Source: an uncultured Leptolinea sp. (GTDB lineage: Bacteria; Chloroflexota; Anaerolineae; Anaerolineales; Anaerolineaceae). From it: 64,000 nucleotides of DNA. Location of the stretch: assembly GCA_964648485.1 (NCBI GenBank), contig CAZYOF010000017.1, positions 3,744-67,743 of the forward strand, given 5' to 3'. The notes below the pieces were generated by a model. The model was not told the DNA's origin, did not search any database, and saw only the letters and a list, made by a program, of their open reading frames with translations. This document shows positions 28,859 to 35,824 of this stretch, in pieces. A program made the position numbers and the translations under genes. How positions within the stretch are numbered: the first letter of the stretch is position 1; each line of letters begins with the position of its first letter.

Positions 28859-29353
28859 TCAACCTTTCACCCCCCTGCGTTTCTCCTCCTGCATCATTAG
28901 CGCCATATTCTTATAAAACAGCAGCCCCACGATCATATCATTCCAATTACGAAAGAGATGATTGAGCGGCATGAGGAAAGGCTTGCCGTAGTCTCGCTGC
29001 TGGTAGAGCTTGCCCGATGCCCACAGCTTCCACAGATCCACACCCGTGCGGTCGCGCAGATCGGTGAAAAGGGCATCGAGGATGGCTTCCCACACGCCCG
29101 CTTTCACCCAGCCGGTGTAGCGCCTGAAACAGGTGGTGTAGGGTGGATAGCCCTCGGGCAGCTCCATCCACTGGATGTCACGCAGGATGACATAGAGGAT
29201 GCCCTCGAGCACATCGCGGTCGTTGGCGGGTTTGCGCCCCACCGTGCCCTCTGCCCGCGGGGGGATGACCCCCTGCACGAGCTGCCAGCGCCGGTCGTTG
29301 AGGAAGGTGGTTTTACGCTGCATGGTATTTAGTAATGAAATGAAATTTTGCAA
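28859..29353 (-). mobile_element. IS5/IS4-family transposase N-terminal (DUF4096-like) domain gene with no DDE domain following; probable IS remnant
   Basis: LNDRRWQLVQGVIPP...GRKPANDRDVLEGILYVILRDIQWMELP..YPPYTTCFRRYTGWVKAGVWEAIL matches the typical IS5-group OrfA N-terminal pattern. It sits exactly at the high-GC to low-GC transition. Confidence 0.55.
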
Positions 29354-29387
29354 TTTTTGCGATCAAATGTGCGAAGTATGGTTTCAT

Positions 29388-29419
29388 ACCCCCAGTTTAC
29401 GCACAAAATGGGGGTTTTT
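29388..29419 (+). terminator. Terminator-like hairpin at the left edge of the defense island
   Basis: accccca-N14-tgggggt followed by ttttt. No plus-strand gene lies directly upstream, so its function is uncertain. Confidence 0.3.
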
Positions 29420-29641
29420 CTACCTGTCACGTGTGACAATTGTTTTGAAAATAAATAGGTGAATTTTTCAGGAATTATGAGGTAATTAGATAAGGCACAC
29501 AAACCAATATGAAAAAATGGAGTGACCTAAACTGCCAATAATTTCATTAATTACTGAATTTGCAGGATGTAAATTTCTTTGCACTCACTATTTGAAAAAA
29601 TGAAAGCTTGTATAATTAAATACTAATACGAGGAGGGTAAA

Positions 29642-30715
29642 ATGCCGATTGAAATTGGAATTTGGCGTATTGAAGATAAGTTAGCCAAAGTCGAATACAT
29701 ACCAATTGAAAATGAAAAAAAACTCGAACAGATCATAATAAAAAATATCCAGATTATCGATAAAGATCTGTTAGTTATTGGTAACCAAATCACCACCGCG
29801 TATGGAAATAAACTAGATATTCTAGCAATTAATAAGAATGCTGAGTTAGTACTAATAGAATTAAAGCGAAATAAGACACCTCGCGATGTTGTAGCCCAAT
29901 TACTTGATTATGCGACCTGGGTTGAGCACCTAAGTTATGATGACGTTAATGCGTTCTATGAAGAAAATCACCCAACAAAAAAACTAGAGCAAGCATTTAA
30001 TGAACATTTTGAGCTTGATATCCCAGATGAATTCAATGAAACCCATAAGTTAATTATTGTCTCTTCAGAATTAGATAACAGTACAGAAAGAATAATTCAT
30101 TATCTATCAGACAATGGTATAGCGATTAATGCAATATTCTTTAAATTTTTCAAAGAAAATGATAAAGAGTACATCACAAGAAGTTGGTTAATCGACCCAT
30201 TCACAACTGATGAAAATGTAAAGAAAACAACAAAAAGATCAAAAAACCTATTTTGGAATGGCAGAGATTGGTATGTGTCTCTTGGTGTAGATGAAAGCCG
30301 CAACTGGGATGATTGTAAAAAATATGGGTTTATATCGGCTGGAGGTGGTAAATGGTACAGTAATACTTTGGCTTTATTACCACTTGAAGCAAGGGTATTT
30401 GTTTGCATACCGAAAGTTGGATATGTAGGTGTCGGTATTGTAAAAAAACAAGCTGTGCCAGTAAAAGAATTCCTTGTTGAGATTGATGAGAAGGAGAGGC
30501 CAATTCTTGAAGCAGAATTAAAAGCAACAAAAATGGGCGAATTTGCAGATGATTTGGAAAAATCTGAGTATTTGGTTGGTGTTGAATGGCTAAAGACTGT
30601 ACCGATAACCAAAGCTATTTGGGAAAAAGGTATGTTTGCCAACCAGAATTCTGCATGTAAACTGCGGAATAGCTTCACGATTGAGCGTTTAACCAAGATC
30701 TTCGAATTAGAATAA
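29642..30715 (+). CDS. NucS-like PD-(D/E)xK nuclease domain fused to an unassigned C-terminal domain (candidate modification-dependent or type IV-like restriction protein)
   Basis: N-terminal [38 protein letters not shown] matches the D..ExK..Q..Y core of NucS-like nucleases. The C-terminal 150 aa ([23 protein letters not shown]...[16 protein letters not shown]) is unassigned. TATAAT lies at 29611-29616 and AGGAGGG 5 nt before the ATG. The line 29701-29760 counts at about 25% G+C. Confidence 0.6.
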
Positions 30716-30735: not shown

Positions 30736-32262
30736 ATGACAGATAATTCAAACGAACTTGAAAAAACACTATGGGCAGCCGCAGATAAAATGCGCTCGAA
30801 TATGGACGCAGCTGAATATAAACACGTCGTATTAGGATTGATTTTTCTCAAATACATTTCTGATGCATTCAACGATTTGTACCAAAAGCTCGCAGAGAAC
30901 AAAGGCGAATATGAGGGCTCTGATCCTGAAGACCCAGATGAGTACCTGGCTAACAATGTCTTTTTCGTACCTGAAAAAGCGCGCTGGCAATACCTGCAGG
31001 ACCGCGCCAAACAGCCAGAAATCGGCAAATATCTTGATGACGCCATGGATGCCATCGAACGGATTAACCCGCCGCTCAAGGGTGTGCTTCCCAAAATTTA
31101 TGCAGACCCAGAGTTAAACAAGCCGCGGTTGGGGGAATTAATTGATTTAATTGGCACAATCGGTTTTCGCCAGGATGCGCACGCGTCCCAGGACCTGCTG
31201 GGGCGTGTCTATGAATATTTCTTAGGCCAATTTGCCGACGCCGAAGGGAAAAAAGGCGGACAATTTTACACCCCTGCCAGTATTGTTAAACTACTTGTCG
31301 AGATGATTGAACCTTTTAACGGCCGTGTCTATGACGGCTGCTGCGGCAGCGGCGGTATGTTTGTTCAGAGTGAAAAGTTTGTCCGTAACCACCAGGGGAA
31401 CATCAAAGACCTGTCGATCTTTGGACAAGAGTCCAACCCCACCACCCTGCGGCTGGCGCGCATGAACCTGGCTATTCGCGGGATCGACGCCAAACTGGAA
31501 CTAGGCGATACCTTCCTCAATGACCGCCATCCAGACCTCAAAGCGGATTTCATTCTAGCTAACCCGCCTTTCAATGTGAGTGATTGGAGCGGCGAGCAGC
31601 TGCGCGATGACATTCGTTGGAAGTACGGACTGCCGCCAGTCGGTAACGCCAATTATGCCTGGCTGCAGCATTTTATCCATAAACTCAGCCCCACGGGTAC
31701 CGCCGGAATTGTGCTCGCAAACGGAAGTATGAACAGCAACACTGGCGGTGAAGGCGAGATTCGCAAGAATATGATCGAAGCTAACATAGTGGACTGCATG
31801 GTTGCCCTGCCTGCCCAGCTTTTTTATAATACGATGATCCCTGCCTGTCTATGGTTCCTGGCTAGAGACAGGACGAATCATAAATTTCGCAACCGTTCCA
31901 ACGAGCTATTATTCATTGATGCCCGCAAACTGGGATCGATGATTAATCGCCGCAACAAAGAGTTTGCACCCGAAGATATCTCCAAAATCGCTGGCACCTA
32001 CCACGCCTGGCGCGGCGAGGGCGGTGTGTATGAAGACCAGCCCGGTTTTTGCAAAGCGGCAACCATGGATGAAGTTCGCGCTAACAATTACGTACTGATG
32101 CCCGGGCGATATGTGGGCACGGAAGAAGCCGAAGATGACGGCATCCCGTTTGAAGACAAAATGAATGCGCTGACGGCTCAACTGGCTGAACAGTTCGCCC
32201 GTGGAAATGAACTACAGCAACGGATTCGCGAGAATTTGAAAGGGATCGGTTATGAATTCTGA
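30736..32262 (+). CDS. hsdM: Type I restriction-modification system, DNA methyltransferase subunit (N6-adenine)
   Basis: HsdM N-terminal domain ([32 protein letters not shown]), AdoMet motif [10 protein letters not shown] and catalytic NPPF. Confidence 0.95.
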
Positions 32263-33376
32263 AGTAAAACTTCTTCCGCCAGCCAGGTTGGAAGAAACCA
32301 AACCCATCTTAAAAAAACTGGCATCCGCACACCGTTACCTGGCAGAGTTAAAGGGTGTAGCTGCATCGATCCCCAACCAAACCATCCTGATTAACACGCT
32401 CGCGCTGCAGGAAGCCAAAGACAGTTCTGCGATTGAGAATATCATTACTACACATGATGCTCTGTATAAGGAGCAGTTATTCAGCGATGTGATTAGCGAC
32501 GCCGCTGCAAAGGAAGTCAGCCTTTACGCGGAAGCGCTCAAACATGGTTTTGATCTGGCTACGAAAAATCACATGCTCACACTAAACCATGTTGTCGAAA
32601 TCCAGAAACGGCTGGAACAGAATGACGCCGGCATACGCAAAATTCCAGGCACGGTACTGGTCAACCCGGCTAGTGGATCGGTTATTTATACACCTCCTCA
32701 GGAGTATCAGACCATTCTGAGATTAATGGATAATCTGATGGCGTATATCAATAACCAAGAAATGCATGATGTGGACCCCTTAATCAAAATGGCGGTTATT
32801 CACTACCAGTTTGAAACCATCCATCCCTTTTATGACGGCAATGGACGCACCGGCAGGATCATTAATTTGCTTTACTTGGTCATGGAAGGGTTATTAACCT
32901 TACCAGTTTTATACCTCAGCCGCTACATCATTCGCAACAAAGGCGAATATTACCGTCAGCTGCAAAGCGTGCGGGACACTGACGAATGGGAACCCTGGAT
33001 ATTGTACATGCTAGAAGCAGTGGAACAAACCTCACAGCAAACCATTCTGCTGGTGAACGGCATTAAAGACCTGATGATGGATTACAAACACCGTATCCGC
33101 AGTGGGTATCCCCGGCTTTACAGCCAGGATCTGATCAACAACTTATTCAGGCATCCTTACACCAAGATCGAATTCTTAATGCGAGATTTGAACATCAGCC
33201 GGCTGACAGCTGCCAAATACCTGGACACGCTGGCAGCGGATGGTTTTCTGGTCAAAGAGAAAATTTGGCGCAGCAATTACTATGTCAACCTCCCGTTATT
33301 TAACCTGCTAAAAGGAGATAACGGGCCGGTCGATACAGAACCGGTTGTCCTCACCCGCCGTATGGATCAGGTATAA
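32252..33376 (+). CDS. Fic/DOC-family protein (Fic_N, Fic and a C-terminal wHTH-like domain) embedded in the R-M operon
   Basis: Canonical Fic motif [12 protein letters not shown]. The N-terminal inhibitory-helix motif SSAIEN fits [ST]xxxE[GN]. The start overlaps the hsdM stop by 11 nt. Confidence 0.9.
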
Positions 33377-33530: not shown

Positions 33531-34778
33531 ATGAGTTCTAATGAATGGAGAAAATATAAATTAGAGGAAATTGCTGAGATTATTGGAGGCGGTACTCCAT
33601 CAACAACAAATCCAGATTTTTGGGGCGAAGAGATACCTTGGGTAACTCCTCGCGATTTAGCCAGTACTGATGAACGTTTTATCTCATGCGGGGAAAGGAA
33701 TATTACAAAAAAGGGTCTACAAAACTCAAGTGCACGGTTGCTACCCGCAGGAACAGTTTTACTGACAACACGAGCCCCAATAGGTTATTTGAGAATTGCA
33801 TTGAATCCAATTTGCACAAACCAAGGATTTAAAAGTCTAATTCCAAAAGCAGATATTGCTGATAACCAATTTCTTTTCTATTTGCTTAAAAACAATGTTG
33901 AGTATTTAAAATCGGTTGGCGTAGGAACCACATTTGCTGAAATATCTGGAAGTGCACTACGGCAAATTGAATTTCAATTTCCTCCCCTCCCCACACAACG
34001 CCGCATCGCCGAAATCCTCTCCGCGCTGGATGACAAGATCGAACTCAACCGCCAGACCAATGCCACCCTGGAAGCCATCGCCCAGGCCATTTTCAAGGAG
34101 TGGTTTATCAATTTCAACTTCCCCGGTTCAACCGGTGAGATGGTCGAGAGTGAACTGGGGATGATTCCCAAGGGGTGGAGAGTGGGGAAGCTGGGAGATG
34201 TATGCAAGTTGATTAAAGGCGTATCTTATAAAAGTAGCGAGTTACAACATTCGGATTCAGCTCTTGTAACTTTAAAATCCATAAATCGTGGAGGTGGGTT
34301 TAATAATGATGGATTTAAAGAATATTTAGGTACTTTTAAAACCTCACAGTGCCTAAAAGAAGGGGATTTGATTTTTGCACAAACTGATATAACTCAGAAT
34401 GCGGATGTTGTCGGTAGCCCTGCAATAGTAGAAAATCCCTTTAATTATAAAAATCTTGTCGCTTCTCTTGATATTGTCAAATGCGAACCCACAAACGAAA
34501 TGCCTAGTAGCGGCACACTTTATTATTTTTTACAACGCCAAGAATTTAAAGATTACTGTTTGAGTCAAACAAATGGTTCGACTGTCTTACATTTGCGTAG
34601 CTCAGAAGTCCCGAATTATTTGATGATCATACCCTATTCAAGTATTTTAAGAGAATTCAATTCTACAATAACTCCTATCAGGCAAATTATCCTAGAAAAT
34701 AATCAGCAGAATCAAATTTTACGAGAAATTCGTGATGAATTATTGCCCAAATTGATGAATGGGGAAATTGAGGTATGA
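33531..34778 (+). CDS. hsdS: Type I restriction-modification system, specificity subunit (two target-recognition domains)
   Basis: Typical TRD start EIAEIIGGGTPST..P.FWGEEIPWVTPRDL, central conserved region PPLPTQRRIAEILSALDDKIELN and distal conserved helix [20 protein letters not shown]. Confidence 0.95.
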   Translation: MSSNEWRKYKLEEIAEIIGGGTPSTTNPDFWGEEIPWVTPRDLASTDERFISCGERNITKKGLQNSSARLLPAGTVLLTTRAPIGYLRIALNPICTNQGFKSLIPKADIADNQFLFYLLKNNVEYLKSVGVGTTFAEISGSALRQIEFQFPPLPTQRRIAEILSALDDKIELNRQTNATLEAIAQAIFKEWFINFNFPGSTGEMVESELGMIPKGWRVGKLGDVCKLIKGVSYKSSELQHSDSALVTLKSINRGGGFNNDGFKEYLGTFKTSQCLKEGDLIFAQTDITQNADVVGSPAIVENPFNYKNLVASLDIVKCEPTNEMPSSGTLYYFLQRQEFKDYCLSQTNGSTVLHLRSSEVPNYLMIIPYSSILREFNSTITPIRQIILENNQQNQILREIRDELLPKLMNGEIEV

Positions 34779-35824
34779 GCGGATTTAAATATGAGGATGA
34801 CAATTGTAGGCGATTTAATGACTCCCTCGATGAAGAAGGTCTGGTATACATCGCGGGGATTGAATTTCAAAGAAGCCGCATCCTCTATGAATTGGCAACC
34901 ACTACATATATTGATGCGTATAACGAGTTTCAAGAACAGGAATTTCAAGAGTTAAAGCAGACTGTTTTTGATTCATATCCAGCCTGTGTCGCCTATAATT
35001 TTCGGCTATCTGAAAGGGGGGAAGGCGCAAACGATCCTGTACGAAAGCTCTTGCATTTGAAGGATTCCTGGGAAGCAATCGTTTTCGTTTTATATGCTTT
35101 GGTTATGGGGGAAGTGAGATTTAGAAATATTGACATGAAGACATCACAAATATTCGTTTCACTAGGAACTGGAGGAAACCCTGTTTACGCCAATTTCAAT
35201 ACAGACAGGATCCTTTCAGATGCTATCAAACAAAAAGTTCAAAACATTAAAGCCATAATTCTCCATTGTAAAAACAATCATCTGGGATTCAAATGCGAAG
35301 AAATCGATGAGACTTTGCTAGATGACCTGTTGGATTTGCAGGATATTCGCAACGATATTTCACACCATACAGCTCCAACGCGTGAACAGGCAGAGGCTGA
35401 ACTTGCTTTAGTGATCCCATTGTTTCAAAAAATGTTGACGAAAACAAAGTTTTTGGAACGCTGCAATATTCTTCGATTTGATAGTTACTCATCATCTTGT
35501 CGATGTGAATCCTTCAATGGACATTCCCTCAACCGGGAGTATGATAACTACCCATTCCATGATCCGCAAAAAACAATGGTGTTAGGCCTTGGACAGGAAC
35601 AATTGTTTGTAAACTGGGATGGGGAATGCTTTAGCCTGTCTCCTTTCCTTCATTTTGACCGCGATAATTCTGGACATGAGTCTTATTTATGCTTTTATAA
35701 AGGAAAGAAAAACAGCAAATATTGGTTTGAGCCAGTAAAAATTCGAACTGAGAAATCATTTGATTCCATTCAATCTCGTTTTGAAATAGAAAAAGACGAT
35801 CTTGTCAGACTTTTGGTGCCATGA
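34775..35824 (+). CDS. Uncharacterised 349-aa protein translationally coupled between hsdS and hsdR; candidate HEPN-like (Rx4H) effector
   Basis: ATGA overlaps at both ends (34775-34778 and 35821-35824). The motif [14 protein letters not shown] gives R-N-x3-H in a predicted helical region. No Walker A motif and no match to a family I can name. The line 35101-35160 counts at 35% G+C, against 60% in the hsdR line 36721-36780. Confidence 0.6.

Follow-up and report, generated by a model that had tools for sequence, protein, structure and literature searches.

A PDC-S11-family protein of an uncultured Leptolinea sp. with a NucS-type nuclease module and a predicted EVE-like domain is probably a modification-dependent restriction nuclease

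We analyzed a stretch of 64,000 nucleotides from an uncultured Leptolinea sp. (contig CAZYOF010000017.1, positions 3,744 to 67,743), which is called the window throughout, and focused on one open reading frame (ORF) of 357 amino acids, which runs from an ATG to a TAA codon (Table 1). The encoded protein is probably a modification-dependent (type IV-like) restriction nuclease that is complete in a single polypeptide and belongs to the PDC-S11 family. The ORF is not a chance frame since 3784 proteins match its translation at E <= 0.001. Comparison with the PADLOC models yielded a match to the PDC-S11 model PDLC04916 over residues 1-356 of 357 (E 1.5e-151) and to a second full-length PDC-S11 model (PDLC04915, E 1.3e-106), and three more PDC-S11 hidden Markov models (HMMs) matched residues ~24-197 only. 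Judged by these matches, the protein is a member of PDC-S11, which is catalogued as a candidate single-gene defence system. A first-pass annotation, made from the letters of the window alone, had proposed a fusion of a nuclease with a reader domain as in type IV enzymes. This proposal is supported by the PDC-S11 assignment, by the published phenotype of one family member (Madara) and by the occurrence of the same C-terminal domain on GmrSD type IV enzymes.

The N-terminal module consists of a PD-(D/E)xK core of the NucS_C type (residues ~25-101), which is followed by a conserved alpha/beta subdomain (~100-187). In Pfam, NucS_C (PF01939) matched residues 25-101 with an E-value of 8.7e-8 (32.6 bits vs. 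a cut-off of 24), and a profile of 118 homologues retrieved NucS of P. abyssi from the PDB (2vld, E 3e-4). In the profile alignment, D59 and E73-x-K75 stand opposite the catalytic strand pair of the P. abyssi enzyme (VD..VVLELKR). The first-pass annotation had recognized a D-(x)n-E-x-K core followed by Q..DY, and in the translation these motifs read D59-ILAI, LIE73-L-K75 and Q86-LLD89-Y90. We found that all six residues (D59, E73, K75, Q86, D89, Y90) are invariant in 118 of 118 homologues; loss of the D/E/K residues among close homologues, which was looked for, was not seen. The AlphaFold2 model of the full-length protein (mean predicted local distance difference test score, pLDDT, 85) shows two domains joined by a disordered linker (residues 188-203), and in Foldseek its N-terminal domain matched EndoMS (5gke) and NucS (2vld). 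Taken together, family, profile and fold matches bear out the earlier reading of the N-terminus as a NucS-type nuclease. An orthologue of the repair enzyme NucS was considered and rejected, since the NCBIfam equivalog NF003270 scored 34.5 bits vs. a cut-off of 216 and only its model positions 127-200 were matched. The distribution of the gene, which is accessory and not core, also disfavors such an orthologue, and the NucS N-terminal DNA-binding domain was not matched in the Pfam scan of the 357-residue protein.

For the C-terminal domain (154 amino acids), a Pfam scan of residues 188-357 alone gave no family at E <= 10, EVE (PF01878) included, and NCBIfam contained nothing relevant for it. 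When PDB sequences were searched, both the single sequence and the family profile retrieved NucS only, via the N-terminal half, and no EVE chain. When residues 200-357 were modeled alone (AlphaFold2, 99 sequences), we obtained a pLDDT of 91.4 and a predicted template modeling score (pTM) of 0.87. Foldseek comparison with the PDB yielded PUA-superfamily base readers as the top 16 matches and as nearly all of the 50 matches listed. They included EVE proteins (2p5d, 1wmm/2hd9, 2eve, 2g2x, 1zce), human THYN1 bound to DNA with 5-methylcytosine (5mC; 5j3e) and, as second-best match, the EVE domain of the EVE-HNH type IV enzyme VcaM4I (6yex, E 5e-5). YTH and ASCH domains ranked after the EVE matches, and for EVE, VcaM4I, YTH and ASCH together the scores ranged from E 3e-5 to 1e-2, with probabilities of 0.9-1.0 and template modeling (TM) scores of ~0.45-0.57. 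DrmA chains of the DISARM DrmAB complex (7s9v, 7s9w) were also among the 50 matches listed. Against viral structures (BFVD) nothing was found at E <= 0.001, and only weak ASCH-like or uncharacterised matches appeared. For the modeled domain, these data support a PUA-superfamily reader fold with a distant likeness to EVE. The resemblance to PUA-like readers (EVE, ASCH) that had been noticed in the letters is thus matched by the predicted fold, and the strings quoted at that time, including WYVSLGV and the terminal EWL, are all present in the translation. The structure search of residues 200-357, which had been suggested as a check, returned a nucleic-acid-reader fold and not a non-nucleic-acid-binding one.

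When the C-terminal domain alone was used as query in an exhaustive HMMER search, we obtained 1282 cluster representatives (50% identity), 616 of them at E <= 1e-10. Among the best 149 of the 1282, 70 carried a NucS-like module, 28 were shorter than 200 amino acids (stand-alone domains or fragments), four had two copies of the domain and nine were at least 600 amino acids long. Domain architectures were determined by Pfam scans of 20 domain-bearing proteins. Here, we found five proteins (P0281, P0284, P0296, P0304, P0343), all from one set of 10 scanned, in which GmrSD_N and GmrSD_C are combined with the domain, which stands at the C-terminus (39-62% identity), and two in which GmrSD_C alone is present. 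TIR fusions were seen three times, twice with a tandem pair of the domain, and the other partners were a protein kinase (one protein), Schlafen AlbA_2 (two proteins) and DUF5655. Tandem pairs of the EVE-like domain occur in the metagenomic proteins P0243, P0247, P0250 and P0252, and in the two of them that were scanned (P0243 and P0247) the pair stands behind an N-terminal TIR domain. The combination of TIR with tandem copies suggests a TIR effector that is gated by a double reader. The fusions of the EVE-like domain to GmrSD, TIR, kinase and Schlafen modules fit a portable defence sensor, and for a domain that recurs on type IV nucleases and on abortive-infection effectors, the sensing of foreign nucleic acid is the best reading. 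In every architecture, R220, W222, D224, G229-F230, G260-Y261-V262-G263, G265, E309 and W316 are conserved, which makes them candidate residues of a base-binding pocket.

The PDC-S11 protein of E. coli ECOR34 was renamed 'Madara' in a September 2026 preprint. It restricts T4, which carries glucosylated hydroxymethylcytosine (glucosyl-hmC), and other Tevenvirinae, not T4(C); the D63A exchange abolishes defence, the protein functions alone from a plasmid, and the authors describe its C-terminus as 'distantly resembling an EVE fold' (bioRxiv 10.64898/2026.09.05.749240). As stand-in for Madara we used P0242, which was found via a scan of 401 Enterobacteriaceae genomes with PDLC04913, blastn into complete E. 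coli genomes and the annotated contexts. E. coli carries two types of PDC-S11 protein. Type 1 (387-400 amino acids) has a DUF4268 C-terminus (PDLC04913) and is encoded between hsdS and hsdR in three of three genomes inspected. For type 2 (332-338 amino acids; PDLC04909, E 4.9e-113), blastn detected relatives in 549 of the 5426 complete E. coli genomes, and in two of two genomes inspected it is encoded divergently beside brxA (DUF1819) in a BREX-1 cluster and its residue 63 is an Asp. Because it matches PDC-S11, is divergent from brxA and carries Asp63, the type 2 protein P0242 is a probable Madara orthologue by sequence and context. At the type 2 loci L089 (8964-9962) and L088 (8964-9980), the gene is flanked by BREX-1 brxA and by a restriction endonuclease that binds phosphorothioated DNA, in the fim/nan neighborhood, and RefSeq labels its product 'membrane protein', 'hypothetical protein' or 'PDDEXK family nuclease'. 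A blastn search of E. coli genomes with the EVE-type homologue of Klebsiella gave no match.

BLASTP aligned the window protein with P0242 over residues 28-212 only (27% identity, E 6e-15), and D59 was placed opposite D63. Like the window protein, Madara carries the PDC-S11 label, is a single gene, has a homologous NucS-like module of ~200 amino acids with an equivalent catalytic Asp and shows the nuclease-linker-sensor layout. Both adjoin methylation-based defence, Madara BREX and the window protein a type I restriction-modification (R-M) system. The two differ in their HMM subfamily, which is PDLC04916 for the window protein and PDLC04909 for the BREX-adjacent E. coli protein. By predicted fold, the C-terminal domain of the window protein is clearly EVE/YTH-like, in contrast to the distant resemblance described for Madara. 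The N-terminal module, and only that module, is common to other PDC-S11 subfamilies, and a fourth C-terminal type, which carries the motif 'SFSLEKS..LTPRF', was seen in loci that were retrieved with the Klebsiella homologue. From these comparisons, PDC-S11 appears to be one nuclease chassis with swappable C-terminal domains of at least four types. A hidden common sensor among the four C-terminal types was considered, but sequence comparison did not back it (hhalign probability < 8% in every pair).

Three side observations concern the same chassis. In P0377 (476 amino acids), DUF4268 (185-285) is followed by the EVE-like domain (329-465), and therefore two alternative PDC-S11 C-terminal modules can share one chain. 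The homologues P0033, P0056, P0080, P0098, P0103, P0108 and P0119 (~437-467 amino acids, 53-57% identity) have an N-terminal extension of ~80 amino acids, for which a precomputed table gives PF18755. We take PF18755 to be the RAMA domain, linked to restriction enzymes and methylases, and such an extension would add a DNA-related module to the nuclease chassis. The Leptolinea genome itself encodes a second protein of this kind (364 amino acids; L003 1471-2565, plus strand, corresponding to ~191 kb of contig C5 of G000), the N-terminal ~220 amino acids of which match the PDC-S11 nuclease (E 2.4e-16). Its C-terminal half is different, and its gene adjoins an ORF of 432 amino acids, which is a candidate phage portal by look only.

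Homologues of the window protein were found in Chloroflexota, Paenibacillus, Bacillus, cyanobacteria and Planctomycetes, and plasmid-borne ones in haloarchaea, Deinococcus, Kocuria, Rhodococcus, Pseudomonas, Klebsiella, Providencia and Proteus. The gene was absent from seven of seven same-genus genomes searched, no full-length match to the protein was present in 30 relatives, and tblastn against 50,697 phage records gave no match. The genomic contexts of the homologues vary: a STAND NTPase with a type III R-M system, type I R-M genes with AbiH and integrases, or housekeeping/ribosomal genes only. The G+C content of the gene is 34.5% (28.8% at third codon positions, GC3), vs. 45.5% for the window. 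The low G+C content, the absence from same-genus genomes, the plasmid-borne homologues and the varied neighbors identify the gene as accessory or mobile. When 22 EVE-type loci were compared, type I R-M genes were nearby in four and none was present in the flanks of the other 18. A cognate methyltransferase is therefore not obligatory, since 18 of 22 loci lack a type I gene and one homologue stands alone among housekeeping genes. With intact nuclease residues, a reader domain by predicted fold and no obligatory cognate methyltransferase, the protein shares these three features with the type IV class with PUA sensors.

The proposed mode of action has three steps. The EVE-like domain would scan DNA and capture a modified base, which is probably a modified cytosine in flipped-out form or another hypermodified phage base, in a pocket for which the conserved aromatic and charged residues W222, Y261, W316, R220, D224 and E309 are candidates. 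Binding would then position or dimerise the NucS-type PD-(D/E)xK domains (D59/E73/K75, presumably Mg2+-dependent), and the positioned nuclease domains, probably as a dimer, would cut the invading DNA. Host DNA would be spared because it lacks that modification, and hence no cognate methyltransferase would be needed. The enzyme would act independently of the downstream type I R-M operon and may cover phages whose modified DNA escapes type I restriction. As for the possible targets, no C5-cytosine methyltransferase (PF00145) was found in the 97%-complete host genome, so that 5mC, 5-hydroxymethylcytosine (5hmC) and glucosyl-type cytosines are permissible. The host carries ~7 PF01555 N6/N4 methyltransferases in addition to HsdM, and its own N6-methyladenine (m6A) and/or N4-methylcytosine (m4C) marks would have to be tolerated by the enzyme.

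Several observations weigh against a modification-dependent DNA nuclease. BLASTP with P0242 gave no alignment past residue 212, and hhalign of the C-terminal alignments of the window type and the Madara type returned a probability of 0.5%; compared via this inferred orthologue and at the sequence level, the C-terminus of Madara is not detectably homologous to that of the window protein. Glucosyl-hmC specificity has been shown for Madara only, and Madara, the only PDC-S11 member with a published phenotype, lies in another subfamily. Since the C-terminal domains are unrelated by sequence, what its phenotype backs is the nuclease module and the overall logic, not the specificity. The Madara authors leave open whether phage DNA is cleaved or whether the response is abortive and non-specific (bioRxiv 10.64898/2026.09.05.749240). 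In addition, the likeness to EVE is modest and one of fold only (TM ~0.45-0.57, 10-14% identity, no sequence support), and EVE and YTH domains also read modified RNA. Reading of m6A or m4C would risk self-attack, given the ~7 PF01555 enzymes and HsdM, which constrains the target.

The moderate fold likeness (TM ~0.5) without a sequence link to EVE, together with the functional diversity of PUA-fold domains, would also fit a C-terminal domain that binds DNA or a ligand without discriminating modification, for instance by structure, sequence or damage. The protein would then be a conventional or repair-type nuclease, and NucS, for its part, serves in the repair of mismatches or branched DNA. We consider this clearly unlikely. 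The protein lacks the NucS N-terminal domain and stays far below the NucS equivalog cut-off, and its patchy, plasmid-borne and defence-island distribution is unlike that of a repair gene. Moreover, a sequence-specific nuclease would need a protecting methyltransferase, whereas most homologous loci have no adjacent one.

A somewhat less remote alternative, which we still regard as rather unlikely, is an abortive or indiscriminate effector, in which the EVE-like domain senses a phage cue (modified RNA, a nucleotide or DNA as signal) and the nuclease attacks nucleic acids of host and phage. Modules that are characteristic of abortive systems (TIR, kinase, Schlafen-type) are fused to the same domain, YTH and some EVE domains read RNA (PMC6765204), and the Madara authors made the reservation mentioned above, all of which would fit such an effector. 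However, the domain is also present on GmrSD, a direct type IV DNA endonuclease, and the EVE-nuclease fusions VcaM4I and TspA15I cut modified DNA directly (PMC7897488, PMC6765204). In the related NucS-like END family, the PLD member was reported to be non-abortive (bioRxiv 10.1101/2025.03.31.646159). Direct, modification-dependent cleavage of DNA thus remains the reading that we prefer.

Type IV-like activity of the window protein would fit into well-described enzyme logic. That a nuclease combined with a modified-base reader forms a type IV enzyme is established, as is the cataloguing of PDC-S11 with one member tested. EVE-HNH enzymes have been shown to be type IV (PMC6765204, PMC7897488), and Bell, Wolf and Koonin predicted in 2020 that EVE-PD(D/E)XK fusions belong to type IV (PMC7641849). 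VcaM4I and TspA15I resemble the window protein in that a single chain carries an EVE-type PUA reader and a nuclease and in that no methyltransferase is needed. They differ in having an HNH nuclease, an N-terminal reader and an EVE domain that is recognizable by sequence, whereas the window protein has a PD-(D/E)xK nuclease and a C-terminal reader that is seen by fold only. The predicted logic and the domain classes of the EVE-PD(D/E)XK fusions are the same as those of the window protein, but the survey mentions neither NucS nor DUF91 and the sensor branch described here escapes the Pfam EVE model. END(Mag) combines a NucS-like PD-DExK nuclease with an inactive EndoIII/Ogg1-like sensor (bioRxiv 10.1101/2025.03.31.646159). 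As proposed for the window protein, this defence enzyme depends on modification and pairs a NucS-like effector with a C-terminal sensor that can be swapped, a likeness of nuclease domains that we draw by description only; its sensor is, however, helix-hairpin-helix (HhH)-glycosylase-like and its target is modified guanine. NucS/EndoMS (2vld, 5gke) share with the window protein the catalytic fold and the D..ExK..Q..Y motifs, but the window protein does not have their N-terminal DNA-binding domain, and its gene is accessory and not core. The GmrSD proteins share the C-terminal domain at 45-50% identity, and it is linked there to an entirely different effector (DUF262 NTPase and DUF1524 HNH-like nuclease).

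Modestly new are an EVE-like sensor branch without family model that is reused on many effectors, and the heterogeneity of PDC-S11/Madara in its sensor domain. Since one nuclease module is combined with four or more C-terminal domains that are unrelated to each other, the phenotype published for Madara is not transferable to the subfamily of the window protein without a test. An EVE-like domain that has no family model and occurs on GmrSD, TIR, kinase and Schlafen effectors is a promising place to look for a new sensor specificity, and it might serve as a reagent to detect a DNA modification. Going further, we tentatively suggest that the domain may represent an unmodelled EVE/YTH-like branch (~1300 representatives), which serves as portable sensor on at least six effector types and perhaps reads glucosylated or hypermodified bases rather than 5mC or 5hmC. 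The six types counted are the NucS-like nuclease, full GmrSD, GmrSD_C alone, TIR (tandem), protein kinase and Schlafen AlbA_2. If this were true, the branch would constitute a separate specificity class of modification-dependent immunity, and the PDC-S11 label would cover a single nuclease chassis with four or more sensors that differ in mechanism. For the host, the enzyme would provide an added layer against phages with modified DNA that escape the adjacent type I R-M system, in parallel to the BREX-BrxU and BREX-Madara pairings.

From the gene onward, hsdM, a SoFic gene, hsdS, an ORF of 349 amino acids and hsdR form a co-directional row. The gene is separated by 20 nt from hsdM, which lies downstream of it and has the same orientation, and no terminator was predicted between them, so an accessory subunit of the type I R-M operon, co-transcribed with HsdMSR and acting for instance as back-up nuclease when the R-M complex is inhibited, might be envisaged. 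The DUF4268-type PDC-S11 siblings between hsdS and hsdR of the E. coli genomes inspected and the four of 22 EVE-type loci with type I genes nearby point in the same direction. Nevertheless, we consider this very unlikely. The other 18 loci have no type I R-M gene in their flanks, one homologue stands alone among ribosomal/housekeeping genes and another one beside a type III system, and Madara works alone from a plasmid. Moreover, the low G+C and GC3 values of the gene, compared with those of hsdM (49.9%, GC3 55%), argue for a separate origin. An obligate type I accessory was judged unlikely because of the lone homologue and the 18 loci without type I genes. Neither SoFic nor a homologue of the 349-residue ORF was found at any of the 22 EVE-type loci. 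Since the neighbors differ among homologous loci, the gene has no conserved partner and would act stand-alone, and we read it as an independent module that landed in a defence island and may be co-transcribed with it. The first-pass annotation had let the enzyme complement the adjacent type I system; this is plausible, but a conserved coupling of the two is not borne out by the loci compared.

Two of the neighbors are of interest in themselves. The SoFic gene (32252-33376, plus strand) lies between hsdM and hsdS and overlaps the hsdM stop codon; it was identified by PADLOC (PDLC03963, E 7.8e-117) and by the Pfam families Fic_N, Fic and SoFic-like_C, and represents a known single-gene defence system that is embedded in the type I operon. 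The 349-residue ORF (34775-35824, plus strand) lies between hsdS and hsdR, where start and stop codons overlap, and it had no match in Pfam, PADLOC or NCBIfam. In all three E. coli genomes inspected, a DUF4268-type PDC-S11 protein fills the same hsdS-hsdR slot, which thus seems to be a place where accessory defence genes dock. On the other side of the gene, an ORF of 164 amino acids (28859-29353, minus strand) marks the left edge of an AT-rich island; it contains DUF4096 (N-terminal part, IS4/IS5-family transposases) and no DDE domain, and we regard it as a fragment of an IS5-family transposase.

Table 1. Coordinates (window positions) of the PDC-S11-family gene, its encoded modules and candidate upstream signals
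Feature	Position	Strand	Basis
PDC-S11-family protein gene	29642..30715, stop codon included	+	ORF list, PADLOC PDLC04916, 3784 homologues
N-terminal module, residues 1-187	29642..30202	+	Pfam NucS_C, profile match to 2vld, Foldseek 5gke and 2vld
Predicted catalytic triad codons D59 (29816-29818), E73 (29858-29860), K75 (29864-29866)	29816..29866	+	Invariant in 118 homologues
Q86-x2-D89-Y90 motif after the core	29897..29911	+	Invariant in 118 homologues
Flexible linker, residues 188-203	30203..30250	+	Only stretch with pLDDT <50 in the model of the whole protein; varies, with gaps, among aligned homologues
C-terminal EVE/YTH-like (PUA-superfamily) domain, residues 204-357, predicted modified-base sensor	30251..30712	+	AlphaFold2 model and Foldseek
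TATAAT, perfect -10-like box, candidate promoter only	29611..29616, ~26 nt 5' of the ATG	+	By eye
GAGGAGG, Shine-Dalgarno-like	29630..29636, 5 nt before the ATG	+	By eye

The spacer upstream of the gene (288 bp) is AT-rich and contains the TATAAT box. A scan for sigma-70 consensus promoters around the gene detected five sites vs. 7.0 expected in shuffled sequences, which is no enrichment, and the box therefore remains a candidate only. Similarly, a terminator scan around the gene gave no excess over shuffled sequence. When G+C was calculated in windows of 1074 nt, the lowest values in the 64 kb (0.329-0.331) were obtained for starts at 29301-29501, and the second-lowest stretch was located near 54.5 kb (0.336). 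The earlier statement that the gene has the lowest G+C of the window thus holds, narrowly, for the gene together with its upstream spacer and not beyond that. The base composition of the window (1-64000) is strongly mosaic, with G+C values of ~0.37-0.47 at 1-23 kb, 0.52-0.62 at 23-28 kb, 0.35-0.51 in the defence island, 0.62-0.63 over mfd (39-43 kb) and ~0.36-0.50 thereafter.

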